DNA from: Escherichia phage ev_rybdy3
Sequence record: PQ819470.1
Reading direction: 5' to 3' (one strand)
Length of the DNA: 64,000 bases
Shown: positions 28,554 to 36,919 of the stretch, one piece after another
How positions within the stretch are numbered: position 1 is the stretch's first letter
How the letters are laid out: every line of letters begins with the position of its first letter
Notes under the pieces: generated by a model
Seen by the model: only the letters and a program-made list of their open reading frames with translations
Databases searched by the model: none
Told to the model about the DNA's origin: nothing
Program-made: the position numbers and the translations under genes

Positions 28554-29525
28554 ATGTCAATCTCCACAACGATCGTACCTCAGAATCTTCAACAAGATTT
28601 AGGGGAACAGAAGTTCTTAGGTCGTGGGTGCTTCGGTATTCACAACTACATGCAAGGCCAGTGTGTAAATGACATTAATGGTGAAGTTATCACGGAAGAA
28701 GGGCGCTATCGTCGCTTCAACCGCGATATCAACTTGCAACTGGAGATGTTGAATTACTGGACTCACTCTTTTCATGGTCATGTTGCATCCGATATTGAAA
28801 AGAACTTGATTGAAACAGCGGACATTATGAACTCTATGTCTTGCTATCGTGATGTATTTACAATCACTTCAGCGAACAGTGTTGCTGTCAATCTTCGTGA
28901 GCATCCAGCAGATCAGATCTTCACAGGACTTATGCTCTTCCGTAGCATTCTGGAAGGGCAGTATCGTGGAATGGATTTCCTAGCAGAAGGAATTGAAGAC
29001 AGGGAAGAGTGGCTGAAGCGTAAACGCATCGGAATCGCTCTAGTGTTAGCTGGGTTAGGTCGTGACTTCTTCGGTGGGTGGTCTCAACGAGGAATAGCCA
29101 ATGGGAATAGCGAGAGCACCTCTATTGTTATTAATAACAATATGTCAGCAGCAGCATTCCTTCCTTTGGTTGTAGACTCTGATGAATACACGAAACAAGT
29201 ATGGGTTCAAAATCCCTTCGGTGTTGGTGACAATGAGAATGGTTATGTTCGTAACCATAACCCAGAGGCCTTACGAAGATTTGCTCGTGCTAAAGATCAA
29301 GACCCAACTGAGTATGCAACAATGTCAGAGTGGTTAAGACTCTGGTCCATCTGTTATGGTCACAAACGTGAAGCAATAGACGACAAGTTGGGAAACATTA
29401 CAGTACAAAACTTTACAGCCCGACTGATTCAAAGAACTGGAGCAGATTCCGGTCTTACTCTTGAAGAAGTTGGTAACACAATCTCATCTCTCTTTTCTGA
29501 ACTAGTGGAGTATTACAATGACTAA
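28554..29525 (+). CDS. Hypothetical protein (323 aa)
   Basis: Long ORF; no motif recognised. Confidence 0.5.
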   Translation: MSISTTIVPQNLQQDLGEQKFLGRGCFGIHNYMQGQCVNDINGEVITEEGRYRRFNRDINLQLEMLNYWTHSFHGHVASDIEKNLIETADIMNSMSCYRDVFTITSANSVAVNLREHPADQIFTGLMLFRSILEGQYRGMDFLAEGIEDREEWLKRKRIGIALVLAGLGRDFFGGWSQRGIANGNSESTSIVINNNMSAAAFLPLVVDSDEYTKQVWVQNPFGVGDNENGYVRNHNPEALRRFARAKDQDPTEYATMSEWLRLWSICYGHKREAIDDKLGNITVQNFTARLIQRTGADSGLTLEEVGNTISSLFSELVEYYND

Positions 29526-30324
29526 GCGCAAATTCCTCATCGGCTCTGACCCTGAAATGTTCGTTCGTACTAACAACGGTATCATCACCTCTGTGGCTGG
29601 TCTGTTAGGCTGTTCTAAGGACGATAAGATCACTCTGGCTAAGGATGTTCGTCTTCAAGAGGACAACGTACTGGCTGAGTTTGATATTGACCCACAGAGC
29701 GGCTTTGAAGCGTTTAACGATAACATGCAACGTGGTATCGATCTCACCAACAATGTCCTGAACAAACTGGACATGGAAACAGCTCCGGGTGTTAGCTCTC
29801 ACATCTTCACTGAAGAAGAGATGAAGACTTTCAATGAATCAGCGTTCATCTTCGGATGTACTCCTGATTTCAACGCTTTCACTGGTCAGAAGAATCCATC
29901 CCCGACTTCTCAGAACAAGGGGCTTCGTACTGCCGGTGGTCACGTACATCTTGGCGTAGTTGGTGCTTTGGATATCACCCTGCAAACTCAGATGATGCTG
30001 GGTGTGCTGTGTGACTATTTCCTGTCCCTCCCAGCAGTTATTATGGATAAAGATACTCGCCGTAAAGAACTCTACGGTAAAGCGTCTGCAATCCGTTATA
30101 AAGACTATGGTATTGAATATCGTTCACTGTCTAACTTCTGGATTAGTGATCGTGAAAACCGTAAGTTTGTTTATGATCAGGTTGACAAAGTTGTTCAGCA
30201 GTGTGATATGTCCACTCTGATGGCATTGCACTCTCGCCTTCCGATTGAGAAGCTTCATGAAATCATTAACGGCAACAACGTTAAAGAAGCGGACCAGCAG
30301 ATCAAACTCCTTCAGGTAGCATAA
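29518..30324 (+). CDS. Putative amidoligase (glutamine-synthetase/GCS2-like carboxylate-amine ligase fold), copy 1
   Basis: N-terminal G-x-[DE]-x-E strand (LIGSDPEMF) and GGHVHLGV motif resembling the HVHVG signature of GCS2/YbdK-like ligases. Confidence 0.4.
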   Translation: MTKRKFLIGSDPEMFVRTNNGIITSVAGLLGCSKDDKITLAKDVRLQEDNVLAEFDIDPQSGFEAFNDNMQRGIDLTNNVLNKLDMETAPGVSSHIFTEEEMKTFNESAFIFGCTPDFNAFTGQKNPSPTSQNKGLRTAGGHVHLGVVGALDITLQTQMMLGVLCDYFLSLPAVIMDKDTRRKELYGKASAIRYKDYGIEYRSLSNFWISDRENRKFVYDQVDKVVQQCDMSTLMALHSRLPIEKLHEIINGNNVKEADQQIKLLQVA

Positions 30325-30333
30325 GAGGTTATC

Positions 30334-30951
30334 GTGAGCTTAGTAGCTGATTTTTCTCATTACTATAATGGTACATGGATTGCTAAACGAGCAGGTAATA
30401 TCAACCTTCCGTGTTTTGTGATTGGTGTTGAGCAGAGCGGTAACTTCCGCAGTGATGACTTCTCTCACGAAGCAGAACAGGCTCTGTACTTTGTTGTAGA
30501 GCAGTGGTACAAGAACGAGCAAGGGAATCTTCGAAACACTACGATGAACATTCCAGTGTTCGACCCAACCTTGATTCTTGAATCACCTGATGTTGGTTAT
30601 CTGTTCCATAACGGTAACACTGTAAGCTGGACTCATATTAACCCTGTTCGTCAGAGAGCAAAGGGTTTAATGGGTAATAAGATTCGAAATGCTCCGGGTG
30701 TTGGTCGTGCTATCTCCGGGGAGATGGTTTACAGTCTGTTCAATCCTGAATTCGAAGGATTGGTTACTCGTTATATTTACATCAACCCTACTGATGGTAA
30801 GGTGCATTATAAAGGTGCACTGGTAGGACAAGTAGATCTGGAAGCGCCTCGTGACTCTTACGGTCAGCAACCGATGCGACTTCTGGAACACTTTCATCAC
30901 ATTTCTGAAAACCTTAGCAATTATAATATTACGTTGGTGGATTCGTTATGA
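30334..30951 (+). CDS. Hypothetical protein within amidoligase cluster
   Basis: 205-aa ORF, overlaps neighbours by few nt. Confidence 0.45.
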   Translation: MSLVADFSHYYNGTWIAKRAGNINLPCFVIGVEQSGNFRSDDFSHEAEQALYFVVEQWYKNEQGNLRNTTMNIPVFDPTLILESPDVGYLFHNGNTVSWTHINPVRQRAKGLMGNKIRNAPGVGRAISGEMVYSLFNPEFEGLVTRYIYINPTDGKVHYKGALVGQVDLEAPRDSYGQQPMRLLEHFHHISENLSNYNITLVDSL

Positions 30952-32051
30952 CAACTGTAGCGCAAACTTTTGGATATCGAGAAGGTCGTTTAACTGAGGA
31001 GCATAGTTCAATTGCACTTCAGTGCGGTGTCGGTATTGAACTTGAACTCGAAGGTTCCGATCATATCGAAGCAGATATGTGGGATTGTACAGAGGATGGT
31101 TCCCTGCGTAATGGTTGTGAAATGGTATGTTCACGACCTTACAACGGACAGGAGTTGTTAGACGCTATCAACAACCTGAGTGAAGCAGTAGCTGAATCGC
31201 ACGCCGAGGGGACTTGGCGTTGCTCTACTCACGTTCATATGGATATGAGGGATGCTGATAGTAATATCCTCAAGAAAACCATTCTCGCTTGGACCTTCTA
31301 TGAAAAGATGTTGTTCAAGTGTTCAGGCTATCATCGTTACCGTAGCAACTTCTGCCCTGCTTTCGCAGTGGTACAGGCACAGGTAATGAATGCCTCTGAC
31401 GCATTTAACTACGACGACGAAGAGTTCTTCAACCGTCTGGTTCGTTCATGGGATAAGTACACATCCCTAAATCTTCTGCCACTTGCCCAATACGGTTCGA
31501 TTGAGTTCCGTATCAGTGAGCCTAAGTGGAAACGTGGTCAACTTCTCAATCTGGTTAACCGATTCTTGATGTTGAAGAAGCTGGCTTTAGATAACGCAGA
31601 GATGAGCAATGATCAGTTTATCGAGCATTTAAATACTGTACGATTTGCCCCAATGCTTCCTTATCTTCCTCTGGATTACAATCTGGATGAATCGGATTTG
31701 CATTCAGGGTATTGTATGGCCCGTGATGTTTTGTATTGTCGTTCTCATGGAGTAGAGCAATCTGGTCGTATTCGTTTACGTCGAACCAACTCTAACGGAG
31801 AAGTTCTTGTTGATTTACGTCTTATCTCAGACTTCTACGGATTCCTTGGATATGTTCGAGGGAACGCTAACAACTTGTACCAAGAGATTCTGGTTATGCT
31901 TCGTACAACTGATCTATCTACTGTACGATCTGCACCGGAGCAACGTATCCGTGCTATTTTTGACTTGCTACGTGAGTCAGGCCACAGTGATAACAACATC
32001 ACAGGGTACATTCCAGATCATCTGGAAAATCAGTTAGAGCAAGCGCTGTAA
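30948..32051 (+). CDS. Putative amidoligase (glutamine-synthetase/GCS2-like fold), copy 2
   Basis: GVGIELELEG metal-binding strand motif and STHVHMDM motif. Confidence 0.45.
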   Translation: MTTVAQTFGYREGRLTEEHSSIALQCGVGIELELEGSDHIEADMWDCTEDGSLRNGCEMVCSRPYNGQELLDAINNLSEAVAESHAEGTWRCSTHVHMDMRDADSNILKKTILAWTFYEKMLFKCSGYHRYRSNFCPAFAVVQAQVMNASDAFNYDDEEFFNRLVRSWDKYTSLNLLPLAQYGSIEFRISEPKWKRGQLLNLVNRFLMLKKLALDNAEMSNDQFIEHLNTVRFAPMLPYLPLDYNLDESDLHSGYCMARDVLYCRSHGVEQSGRIRLRRTNSNGEVLVDLRLISDFYGFLGYVRGNANNLYQEILVMLRTTDLSTVRSAPEQRIRAIFDLLRESGHSDNNITGYIPDHLENQLEQAL

Positions 32052-36235: not shown

Positions 36236-36288
36236 TCTGCTTTAGCCTCTTCGAAAGAGGAGGCTAGTTCGGATAAACTGGAGGTTTT

Positions 36289-36498
36289 ATGAAACATGAA
36301 AGATTAAGTAAAGCCATCGATTCTGTATGGGATGCTGGGTGTGTTATCTACCGAGAGCATCACTCATATGGACAAACCAGAATATTGATTCTTAATCCCT
36401 TCTGCGAGCAGTTGGGGTTAGAAGTGTTTGTAACAGGAGCCACTGATCAGCAGTGTGCTTACATTGAAAACATCATGAAAGACTGGAAAGGTATTTAA
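36289..36498 (+). CDS. Small hypothetical protein ending in ...WKGI
   Basis: 69-aa ORF directly upstream of GGCT-like gene. Confidence 0.4.
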   Translation: MKHERLSKAIDSVWDAGCVIYREHHSYGQTRILILNPFCEQLGLEVFVTGATDQQCAYIENIMKDWKGI

Positions 36499-36499
36499 A

Positions 36500-36919
36500 A
36501 TGTCAGAAGTAATTTATGTAGCAACTTATGGTTCTCTTCGTCGCGGTCAAGCTAACTATTTAGTTAATGACCGAGCTGGTGCTAAGTCAATTGGTGAAGG
36601 TTGGACTGAAGATAACTTTGATCTGTTCCGTTATGGTGGTTCCTACTTCCCAAGCATCTCTCTCGCACACAGCAATAACAATAAGCCTGTTCGTGTAGAA
36701 GTGTTTACTACTGACAAAGCAGGTCTGGAAGGTCCATATGACCGACTGGAAGGTTACAACAAACGTAGCCCTGAAGATAGCTTCTATCAACGCACCCAGA
36801 TTGCCGTCAAGCTGGACTCAGGTGAAACTGTTATCGCTTGGATTTATCACATCGACGAAGAACAAGATGTTCTGGTTGAATCTGGCGACTGGTCAGAGTA
36901 TCTGAAAAGTGAATCTTGA
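36500..36919 (+). CDS. Gamma-glutamyl cyclotransferase-like (AIG2/GGCT fold) protein
   Basis: N-terminal YVATYGSLRRGQANY matches the YGTL/YGSL motif of GGCT/AIG2 proteins; conserved Glu in ...LEGY. Confidence 0.55.
   Translation: MSEVIYVATYGSLRRGQANYLVNDRAGAKSIGEGWTEDNFDLFRYGGSYFPSISLAHSNNNKPVRVEVFTTDKAGLEGPYDRLEGYNKRSPEDSFYQRTQIAVKLDSGETVIAWIYHIDEEQDVLVESGDWSEYLKSES

Follow-up and report, generated by a model that had tools for sequence, protein, structure and literature searches.

A predicted gamma-glutamyl amide module of the phiEco32 type in Escherichia phage ev_rybdy3, with a likely AUU start for its amidotransferase gene

This analysis concerns a module of genes in Escherichia phage ev_rybdy3 (PQ819470.1) that is predicted to build and trim amide bonds. 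We refer to the whole stretch of DNA that was analysed, 64,000 nucleotides, as the window, and give all positions in its numbering; to convert a window position w to the matching database record, where the strand is reversed, take 75849-w. The core of the module, all on the plus strand of the window, consists of two glutamine-synthetase-like (GS-like) ligases, CNL2 (COOH-NH2 ligase type 2; 29518 to 30324) and AL2 (Amidoligase_2; 30948 to 32051), a protein of 205 amino acids that we call u205 encoded between them (30334 to 30951), a class-II, N-terminal nucleophile (Ntn) glutamine amidotransferase (GATase; 32131 to 34161), an ATP-grasp ligase (34605 to 35798) and a gamma-glutamyl cyclotransferase (GGCT; 36500 to 36919). 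An earlier note on this DNA had named five enzyme families here, and profile searches find all five at the positions it gave, the GATase only once its frame is extended upstream to 32131. Comparison of sequences establishes that the module holds three different predicted ATP-dependent carboxylate-amine ligases, a predicted Ntn GATase and a predicted gamma-glutamyl-cleaving enzyme, that the catalytic residues of these are intact, and that they are inherited as a block together with u205.

The module is the already described phiEco32-type system, predicted but uncharacterised, and is the founding example of PF14395, a family named "Phage phiEco32-like COOH.NH2 ligase-type 2". The phi32_83-86 cluster of phiEco32, with PF14395 and PF12224 (Iyer, Abhiman, Burroughs and Aravind 2009), has the same genes and there is no difference in kind. 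The 2009 prediction of an amidoligase system is relayed in PMC10580990, and later papers just list the genes or repeat it. The earlier note had said that such systems were predicted by comparative genomics with no biochemistry to follow, and this agrees with our literature search, which returned predictions and passing mentions only; no biochemical, structural or genetic study of the module was found in the literature searched, two primary papers lying outside that search. What is new here is the corrected start of the GATase gene, the recognition of u205 as a conserved partner, the interchange of GGCT with a second gamma-glutamyl-cleaving family, and counts of co-occurrence. More than 15 years have passed since the prediction, and identification of the product is likely to reveal a new phage metabolite or protein modification.

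For comparison of the individual proteins, orthologues were aligned from six lineages: this Kuravirus, Salmonella phage 7-11, Aeromonas phage BUCT695, Pseudomonas phage LUZ24 (gp16-gp22), the crAss-like Cellulophaga phage phi14:2 (g037-g041) and Sinorhizobium phage phiM6. CNL2 (phrog_3815) is 99.6% identical to the phiEco32 protein and matches PF14395 at E = 2.2e-8, with 34.1 bits against a Pfam cutoff of 25. Residues D11-P12-E13, E54, R137, H142, H144, R182, E200 and R202 are invariant in eight diverse sequences, and the DPE and HVH motifs are invariant across the six lineages. AL2 (phrog_7469) matches PF12224 at E = 4.3e-8 (33.8 bits, Pfam cutoff 22), with G29xE31xE33, D50, E58, H95xH97 and E186 invariant in all six. 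CNL2 is predicted to be an ATP-dependent carboxylate-amine ligase and AL2 to be a second one; neither the CNL2 nor the AL2 profile found a relative among PDB sequences. The motifs on which the earlier note had relied, GxExE and HVH in AL2, HVH in CNL2, EVN in the ATP-grasp ligase and YGSL in GGCT, are invariant in the six lineages and are not chance matches. Its description of the two amidoligases as paralogous has to be dropped at the level of sequence, as there is no BLAST similarity between them and hhalign gives a probability of 0.4%, and what they share is only their placement by Pfam and the literature in one ligase superfamily.

The GATase requires more discussion, and in every database annotation inspected its catalytic Cys is omitted. 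The first canonical starts of the open reading frame (ORF) are TTG 32470 and ATG 32473, and from these only the C-terminal half of the Ntn domain remains; the protein so defined (32470/32473-34161) scores 23.7 bits with Pfam, under the cutoff, for it lacks the first 113 codons and with them the nucleophile Cys. The frame is open from 32128, where AAA ATT TGT GGC ATC GTA would be read as (M)CGIV, with the Cys codon at 32134-32136. Read from ATT 32131 the protein has 676 amino acids and matches GATase_6 with 55.1 bits against a cutoff of 27 (E = 1e-14), and the phrog_4736 and GlmS N-domain profiles align to it from residue 2.

The DNA before this codon (leader, 32059 to 32130, plus strand) has a hairpin at 32059-32079, a mini-ORF of nine codons from ATG 32098 to TAG 32127 that is in frame with the GATase gene, a second hairpin within the mini-ORF (AAGGG-TTTA-CCCTT, 32102-32115), and a Shine-Dalgarno sequence, AGGTGGA, at 32117-32123, 7 nt upstream of ATT 32131. 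The 50 nt upstream are almost invariant at the nucleotide level in Kuravirus, Suseptimavirus, Aeromonas phage BUCT695 and two metagenomic contigs, while the coding sequences have diverged, and the P0073 contig carries a compensatory change in the leader hairpin. Phage 7-11 has ATG precisely at the position of the ATT of the window, and one relative has TTG at that codon. MCG is the N-terminus of most of 120 GATase homologues, and of 77 IMG/VR loci, 64 have ATG and 7 have ATT as the codon before Cys1. ATT is found before Cys1 in at least three independent lineages, two of them unrelated to Kuravirus, and each time it stands behind a Shine-Dalgarno sequence. On this comparative evidence translation of the GATase most likely starts at AUU 32131, directly before the catalytic Cys1.

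Re-initiation after the mini-ORF and readthrough of its TAG are possible alternative routes. The idea of readthrough was prompted by five metagenomic homologues that are called with MK[GE][FL][TA]LQVDY[KS][IL]-Cys, and some relatives have TAT in place of the TAG at 32127. Readthrough would give an 11-residue propeptide, and we consider it less likely than direct initiation because of the Shine-Dalgarno sequence 7 nt before the pre-Cys codon and the TTG or ATG at that codon in relatives. An amber-suppressor tRNA for the in-frame TAG was considered and rejected, as the window encodes only tRNA-Arg(TCT). The leader was also considered as a recurring promoter, and this was rejected as the leader motif occurs once in the window; the phiEco32 motif TAATGTATA is not enriched in the window (14 observed against 19.8 expected).

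In crAss-like members (phi14:2 g040, L009:7826-9742, and the loci L071 and L072) the GATase frame extends, without a stop, 30-46 codons upstream of the Cys; the codon next to the Cys is no canonical start, and in phi14:2 the stretch before the Cys is hydrophobic. This N-terminal stretch may be an autoprocessed propeptide, or may reflect another mis-called start.

With the N-terminus read in this way, the residues expected of a class-II GATase are encoded. Cys1, R29, H84xR86, N97, N111-G112 and D129 are conserved in the six lineages, and the motifs GHSRHAT, HNG and DSE, also invariant in the six, align with those of GlmS and PurF. Among the retained residues are the Arg that binds the free alpha-carboxyl group of the glutamyl moiety and the Asp that binds its free alpha-amino group. 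Behind the Ntn domain come a low-complexity linker, a beta-rich domain and three zinc-ribbon-like CxxC...C motifs. No Pfam or NCBIfam domain was found after the Ntn domain, and there is no fused synthase domain; therefore the partner of the GATase must be a separate protein. The PDB sequence search gave marginal superfamily matches only.

The name "L-glutamine-D-fructose-6-phosphate aminotransferase", carried by 32473-34161 in PQ819471.1 and relatives, is not supported by the sequence. The scores against the GlmS families of NCBIfam are 35.8 to 43 bits, with cutoffs of 418 and 381, and the N-domain alone aligns, with no SIS domains. Constructs built on current annotations of this gene are without the catalytic cysteine.

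A similar difficulty applies to the ATP-grasp ligase. Its Pfam matches are weak (RimK, E = 9.6e-4; Dala_Dala_lig_C, E = 1.2e-3), its NCBIfam matches are far under the cutoffs (MptN, E = 6.7e-8; rimK_fam, E = 2.7e-7), and its best PDB matches, which are marginal, are alpha-L-glutamate ligases and RimK. Membership of the ATP-grasp superfamily is well supported, K85, R121, G129xG131, E157xR159xH161, K173, D229 and E241xN243 being invariant in the six lineages, and the nearest matches place it in the RimK branch. The nearest characterised relatives are RimK, which glutamylates ribosomal protein S6, MptN and CofF, and the Mg/ATP residues of these are kept, though the scores are far under the family cutoffs. 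For the S6:glutamate ligase family in particular the scores are 30.3 bits for rimK_fam, where 143.4 are needed, and 23.3 for the PRK10446 S6 ligase equivalog, where 331 are needed. The database name "ribosomal protein S6 glutaminyl transferase" for 34605-35798 (again PQ819471.1 and relatives) is not justified on these scores. Misleading names such as this and GlmS keep spreading through the databases. The protein also has an acidic linker, and at its C-terminus a domain of about 80 aa that is lineage-specific and matches phrog_20552. In one metagenomic relative (L013:10919-13663) the ATP-grasp ligase is a 914-aa fusion protein, and the adjacent ribonucleotide reductase of the same relative (L013:15121-18390) has an intein carrying a LAGLIDADG endonuclease.

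GGCT belongs to the AIG2/GGACT family, with a match to PF06094 at E = 2.1e-17 (64.3 bits, Pfam cutoff 22.8), and Y10-G11 of the YGSL motif and the catalytic E84 are invariant in the six lineages. The search of PDB sequences gave marginal superfamily matches only. From its family and its catalytic residues GGCT is predicted to remove an L-gamma-glutamyl group as 5-oxoproline.

CNL2 is present in 306 sequenced phage records, and a search of IMG/VR with the CNL2 profile gave 360 stretches with a relative. The carriers include the therapy-relevant Kuravirus and Bruynoghevirus, Vibrio and Aeromonas phages, marine HMO-2011-type and OM43 phages, and a crAss-like phage. Co-occurrence was counted in 79 IMG/VR loci that were analysed locally. 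AL2 and the GATase are each present in 77 of these, the u205 family in 75 and the ATP-grasp ligase in 73, and most of the loci missing a member end shortly after CNL2. All genes of the module are on one strand, and in nearly all loci the order is CNL2, a protein of about 200 aa, AL2, GATase, ATP-grasp and then usually primase. A primase gene follows the module in LUZ24, 7-11, BUCT695 and phiM6 and adjoins it in phi14:2, and the primase cluster is present in 43 of the IMG/VR loci.

The remaining member of the module is variable in an informative way. GGCT is present in 48 of the 79 loci, and in 27 of the 79 there is a Peptidase_C26 gene (PF07722, E = 4.5e-18) just upstream of CNL2. When the tally is restricted to the 58 loci that are fully covered, with a flank of 10 kb around CNL2, 34 have GGCT only, 18 have C26 only, two have both and four have neither. 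These last four are 7-11-like phages; the GGCT gene of 7-11 is about 11 kb downstream of CNL2, outside the 10-kb flank. Peptidase_C26 is the PuuD/gamma-glutamyl hydrolase family, and GGCT/GGACT and PuuD proteins both cleave L-gamma-glutamyl amides, the cyclotransferase requiring that the alpha-amine of the glutamyl group be free. Since GGCT and the unrelated C26 replace each other, removal of a gamma-glutamyl group is indicated as an obligatory step, and the alpha-amine of that group must be free because the cyclotransferase needs it. The intact Arg/Asp pocket of the GATase for a free glutamyl head group points to the same free alpha-amine. The suggestion of the earlier note that the module makes and trims gamma-glutamyl-type amides is thus supported by the families, by the glutamyl pocket of the GATase and by this interchange, which directs the search for the product to L-gamma-glutamyl amides and 5-oxoproline. 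Phage phiM6 (L010:3783-4388 and 9322-10428) has both a C26 hydrolase and a GGCT, plus a second GATase-II gene, and is a natural expanded variant that could be of use in ordering the steps.

The u205 family is encoded between CNL2 and AL2. Its enteric and marine forms are linked by hhalign at 98.6%, and its hidden Markov model matches five of the six reference lineages. The structural model of u205 consists of small Tudor/SH3-like beta-barrels, with no enzyme-like match, and the best-conserved feature is a basic loop, R106-Q-x-K-K-G111, in a segment modelled with low confidence. Judged from this model u205 is a conserved non-enzymatic accessory protein, and it is a candidate for a scaffold or for a substrate.

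Our preferred reading, which we hold tentatively and at somewhat less than an even chance, is that these proteins form a cytoplasmic pathway, expressed with the replication genes, that builds a small amide or peptide product by way of L-gamma-glutamyl-masked intermediates. One of the GS-like ligases would join the gamma-carboxyl of L-glutamate to an amine, so masking or tagging the amine, and the other GS-like ligase and the ATP-grasp ligase would add further amide bonds, the latter most likely adding an alpha-linked glutamate or another amino acid. The GATase would pass ammonia from glutamine to an activated carboxylate to give an amide, or would use a gamma-glutamyl amide as a glutamine analogue. 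GGCT would act last, stripping the gamma-glutamyl group as 5-oxoproline and freeing the finished amine, and in other phages the PuuD-like C26 would release glutamate instead. u205 would serve as a scaffold for the enzymes, or its invariant RQxKKG loop would present the intermediate to them. On this reading a small molecule is the most likely product, be it a short peptide amide or else an acylated polyamine or amino acid, and it may serve in replication, in supply of counter-ions or in counter-defence.

Several observations favour such a pathway. There is no conserved Pup-like or LysW-like tag protein among the small ORFs of the module or in u205, and proteomics of phage SU10 shows that module proteins are made during infection, as the ATP-grasp ligase, the GATase, GGCT (as a YtfP-like protein) and a hypothetical protein of 23.3 kDa, about the size of u205, are among its "early gene products". 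The hint in the earlier note at action during host takeover is a conjecture on which two observations bear, this early detection and the constant linkage of the module to primase and replication genes. The Aravind-lab papers note that linked ligases of these superfamilies usually carry out successive ligations on peptide-derived metabolites, peptidoglycan or glutathione-like cofactors.

There are parallels with characterised systems, and in each case there are also differences. In the Puu pathway of E. coli a GS-fold ligase (PuuA) makes an L-gamma-glutamyl amide and a later enzyme (PuuD, of the C26 family) removes the glutamyl group, which is the same logic, and relatives of the module carry C26; however no protein of the module belongs to the PuuA or PuuD family, there is no step by an oxidase or a dehydrogenase, and the module of the window has a cyclotransferase in place of C26, two extra ligases and an Ntn amidotransferase. 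In butirosin synthesis the ATP-grasp enzyme BtrJ and the GGCT-like BtrG are involved, and a gamma-glutamyl protecting group is removed as 5-oxoproline. The pairing of an ATP-grasp enzyme with a gamma-glutamyl cyclotransferase is similar when compared at the level of superfamily, but the butirosin intermediates are carried on an acyl carrier protein and there is none in the module. For glutathione the GCS-fold ligase GshA, the ATP-grasp GshB and ChaC/GGCT act in sequence on a gamma-glutamyl peptide. By family assignment the same three folds are found in the module, which differs in that it also has another GS-like ligase, an amidotransferase of the Ntn type and a putative scaffold protein, and in having no match to GshA or GshB at the level of family.

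Some points weigh against the pathway as we have drawn it. None of the analyses run here identified a substrate. It is unusual for a pure metabolite pathway to include a conserved protein that is no enzyme and carries an invariant, flexible loop containing Lys, and u205 would fit a protein substrate equally well. The order of steps and the allocation of roles to CNL2 and AL2 are guesses, and the GATase may act as a hydrolase and not donate ammonia. The idea of a protecting group comes by analogy from precedents (butirosin BtrJ/BtrG and Puu) and not from homology above any family threshold.

A bolder form of the proposal is that the module is an assembly line for a previously unknown molecule made by the phage, or for a mark placed on the u205 loop, built by way of gamma-glutamyl-masked intermediates. 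In this form the Ntn enzyme may deliver a group other than ammonia, and replication, or the unexplained resistance to restriction of the Gordonclarkvirinae, would depend on the product. We regard this as rather unlikely as a whole.

The main competitor to a small-molecule pathway is protein tagging, in which glutamate would be joined by its gamma-carboxyl, possibly with RimK-like extension to a short chain, onto a lysine of u205 or of a host protein, with GGCT or C26, and perhaps the Ntn enzyme, as erasers. Much that is known of the enzyme families is in keeping with this: GGACT has epsilon-(gamma-glutamyl)-lysine as its canonical substrate, S6 is polyglutamylated by RimK, and a GS-like fold is found in the Pup ligase PafA. 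Pupylation (PafA/Dop and Pup) is the closest parallel in that a GS-fold ligase makes an isopeptide from the gamma-carboxyl of glutamate and there is an opposing, de-conjugating activity, and the module likewise combines predicted GS-like ligases with a predicted removal activity. The non-enzymatic u205 is always encoded between two ligases, and its most conserved feature is the flexible RQxKKG loop with its conserved Lys. Peptide tagging was also predicted for such ligase clusters by the Aravind laboratory. However no small tag protein is conserved. Among the small ORFs of the module there is no conserved disordered protein with a C-terminal Gln or Glu, as pupylation would require, and no protein of the module has a Pup_ligase match in Pfam; u205 and DUF7195, a small protein encoded after the GATase, are without the conserved acidic tail ending in Glu of a carrier of the LysW/LysX type. 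The small ORFs were accordingly rejected as Pup-like or LysW-like tags, being neither conserved nor acidic at the tail. There is no membership of the RimK or Pup-ligase families, three ligases and an amidotransferase exceed the needs of a simple tag, and no modified protein has been reported, the SU10 proteomics search not having been aimed at such adducts. We consider tagging rather unlikely.

A less probable alternative is a rewiring of host metabolism, in which amines, glutamine, glutathione or polyamines of the host would be sequestered or released by gamma-glutamylation and deglutamylation, feeding nucleotide synthesis or adjusting counter-ions. A GS-like ligase with a C26 hydrolase is the arrangement of PuuA and PuuD for putrescine, and the presence of C26 in 27 of 79 loci would fit this, as would the neighbouring genes of nucleotide metabolism, dCTP deaminase and ThyX here and ribonucleotide reductase in relatives; papers on marine phages class these genes as auxiliary metabolic genes. 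But the fixed order of three distinct ligases and a conserved, putative scaffold protein looks more like an assembly line than a salvage shunt, and Pfam finds no Puu-type oxidase or dehydrogenase in the module.

The prediction published for phiEco32 was of a different kind, namely modification of cell-envelope precursors as a block to superinfection, for instance with the stem peptide of peptidoglycan being amidated or extended (Iyer et al. 2009, as relayed in PMC10580990). The weak resemblance of the ATP-grasp ligase to D-Ala-D-Ala ligases is in its favour. Class-II GATases are also known to amidate peptidoglycan precursors in some bacteria. However the interchange of GGCT and C26 points to an L-gamma-glutamyl group with a free alpha-amine, and the D-isoglutamate of the stem peptide is N-acylated by L-Ala. 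The module is also tied to replication genes and not to lysis or envelope genes in all lineages, and no envelope-related domain is found in it by Pfam, so that we think this reading improbable.

The Gordonclarkvirinae resist restriction-modification (RM) systems without a known modification pathway, and related phages are reported resistant to the EcoRI, EcoRV, EcoKI and EcoP1 systems. Sites for these remain in the window (11, 32, 7 and 87 respectively) and are not depleted, so that avoidance of sites can be rejected as the sole basis of the resistance, and this points to some other anti-restriction mechanism. Other sites are avoided, with CCWGG found 6 times where 123 are expected, PstI 0 against 16, SacI 0 against 11 and BamHI 1 against 10, among other palindromes; such avoidance is expected for DNA that enzymes can read and argues against blanket hypermodification of the DNA. 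Hypermodification, with a base or nucleotide decorated by a group derived from an amino acid, would explain the resistance and has in its favour that the module adjoins primase everywhere and that amidoligase and amidotransferase genes lie beside thymidine-hypermodification genes in viral metagenomes (Lee et al. 2021), but no hydroxymethylase, TET/JBP, 5-HMUDK, aGPT-Pplase, glycosylase or transglycosylase is annotated or matched, thymidylate synthase is an ordinary ThyX with no 5-hmdU cluster, and Pfam finds no nucleic-acid-binding enzyme domain in the module, which leaves it the most doubtful of the readings considered.

Of the smaller proteins encoded within the module, only DUF7195 (34164 to 34397, plus strand, 77 aa; PF23825, E = 4.7e-17) is conserved outside Kuravirus. 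In 7-11, BUCT695 and two metagenomic contigs an orthologue is encoded directly after the GATase, and gp20 of LUZ24, which aligns with these orthologues, appears to be a further member. The pattern is an N-terminal strand, VvRKxPMT, then two helices, with a C-terminus that is variable and not acidic, and on this pattern DUF7195 may be a ribbon-helix-helix DNA-binding protein and so a possible regulator embedded in the module. The small ORF u74 (34378 to 34602, plus strand) has phrog_13464 as its only match, has no BLAST match in the other five lineages, and is restricted to Kuravirus and close relatives. Three small ORFs on the plus strand between the ATP-grasp and GGCT genes (35811-36053, 36050-36235 and 36289-36498; block 35811 to 36498) match only phrog_8339 and phrog_8591, for which no function is assigned, with no BLAST match in other lineages and no Pfam match, and are unlikely to be core components.

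Upstream of CNL2 there are two further ORFs on the same strand, u397 (27350 to 28543, 397 aa) and u323 (28554 to 29525, 323 aa). The stop of u323 overlaps the start of CNL2 by 8 nt, which is consistent with translational coupling. Two fast-evolving ORFs of about 300-400 aa are also present before CNL2 in 7-11, BUCT695 and LUZ24. For u397 there is no Pfam or NCBIfam match, phrog_13063 being its only match, and its N-terminus weakly matches the BUCT695 protein b274 (E = 0.004). Homology among the upstream proteins of about 300 aa across lineages was considered, and the links found are weak and transitive only. It is probable that u397 is a member of the module, with the co-directional block starting at 27350; the earlier note had given a co-directional cluster of 29518-36919, and the genes it placed there stand but the start is probably further upstream.

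The 7.4-kb region is 100% identical to that of Escherichia phage ev_rybdy8 and 94-97% identical to those of the Kuraviruses SGF2, NJ01, MN05 and SU10, and the module accounts for about 7-9.5 kb of the genome, which has 78 kb. The surrounding genome is that of a typical phiEco32-like podovirus (Kuravirus), with a primase/helicase, a split DNA polymerase, dCTP deaminase, ThyX, an ECF-type sigma factor and structural genes. The DNA primase/helicase gene, as annotated in the record, is at 37139 to 38929 on the plus strand, outside the module.

Two other observations were made in the window. The 437-aa "nucleotidyltransferase" at 39482-40795, beside dCTP deaminase, has a weak match to the PolyA_pol head domain (18.8 bits, cutoff 23), and a role in DNA modification is suspected for it by the BASEL authors. 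In the late-early region there are a Macro domain protein (54557-55054), a SLOG (YAcAr) domain protein (55718-56110) and a stand-alone NAD-binding Nlig-Ia domain annotated as "DNA ligase" (45482-45811), a set that suggests an NAD/ADP-ribose-based conflict with host defences.

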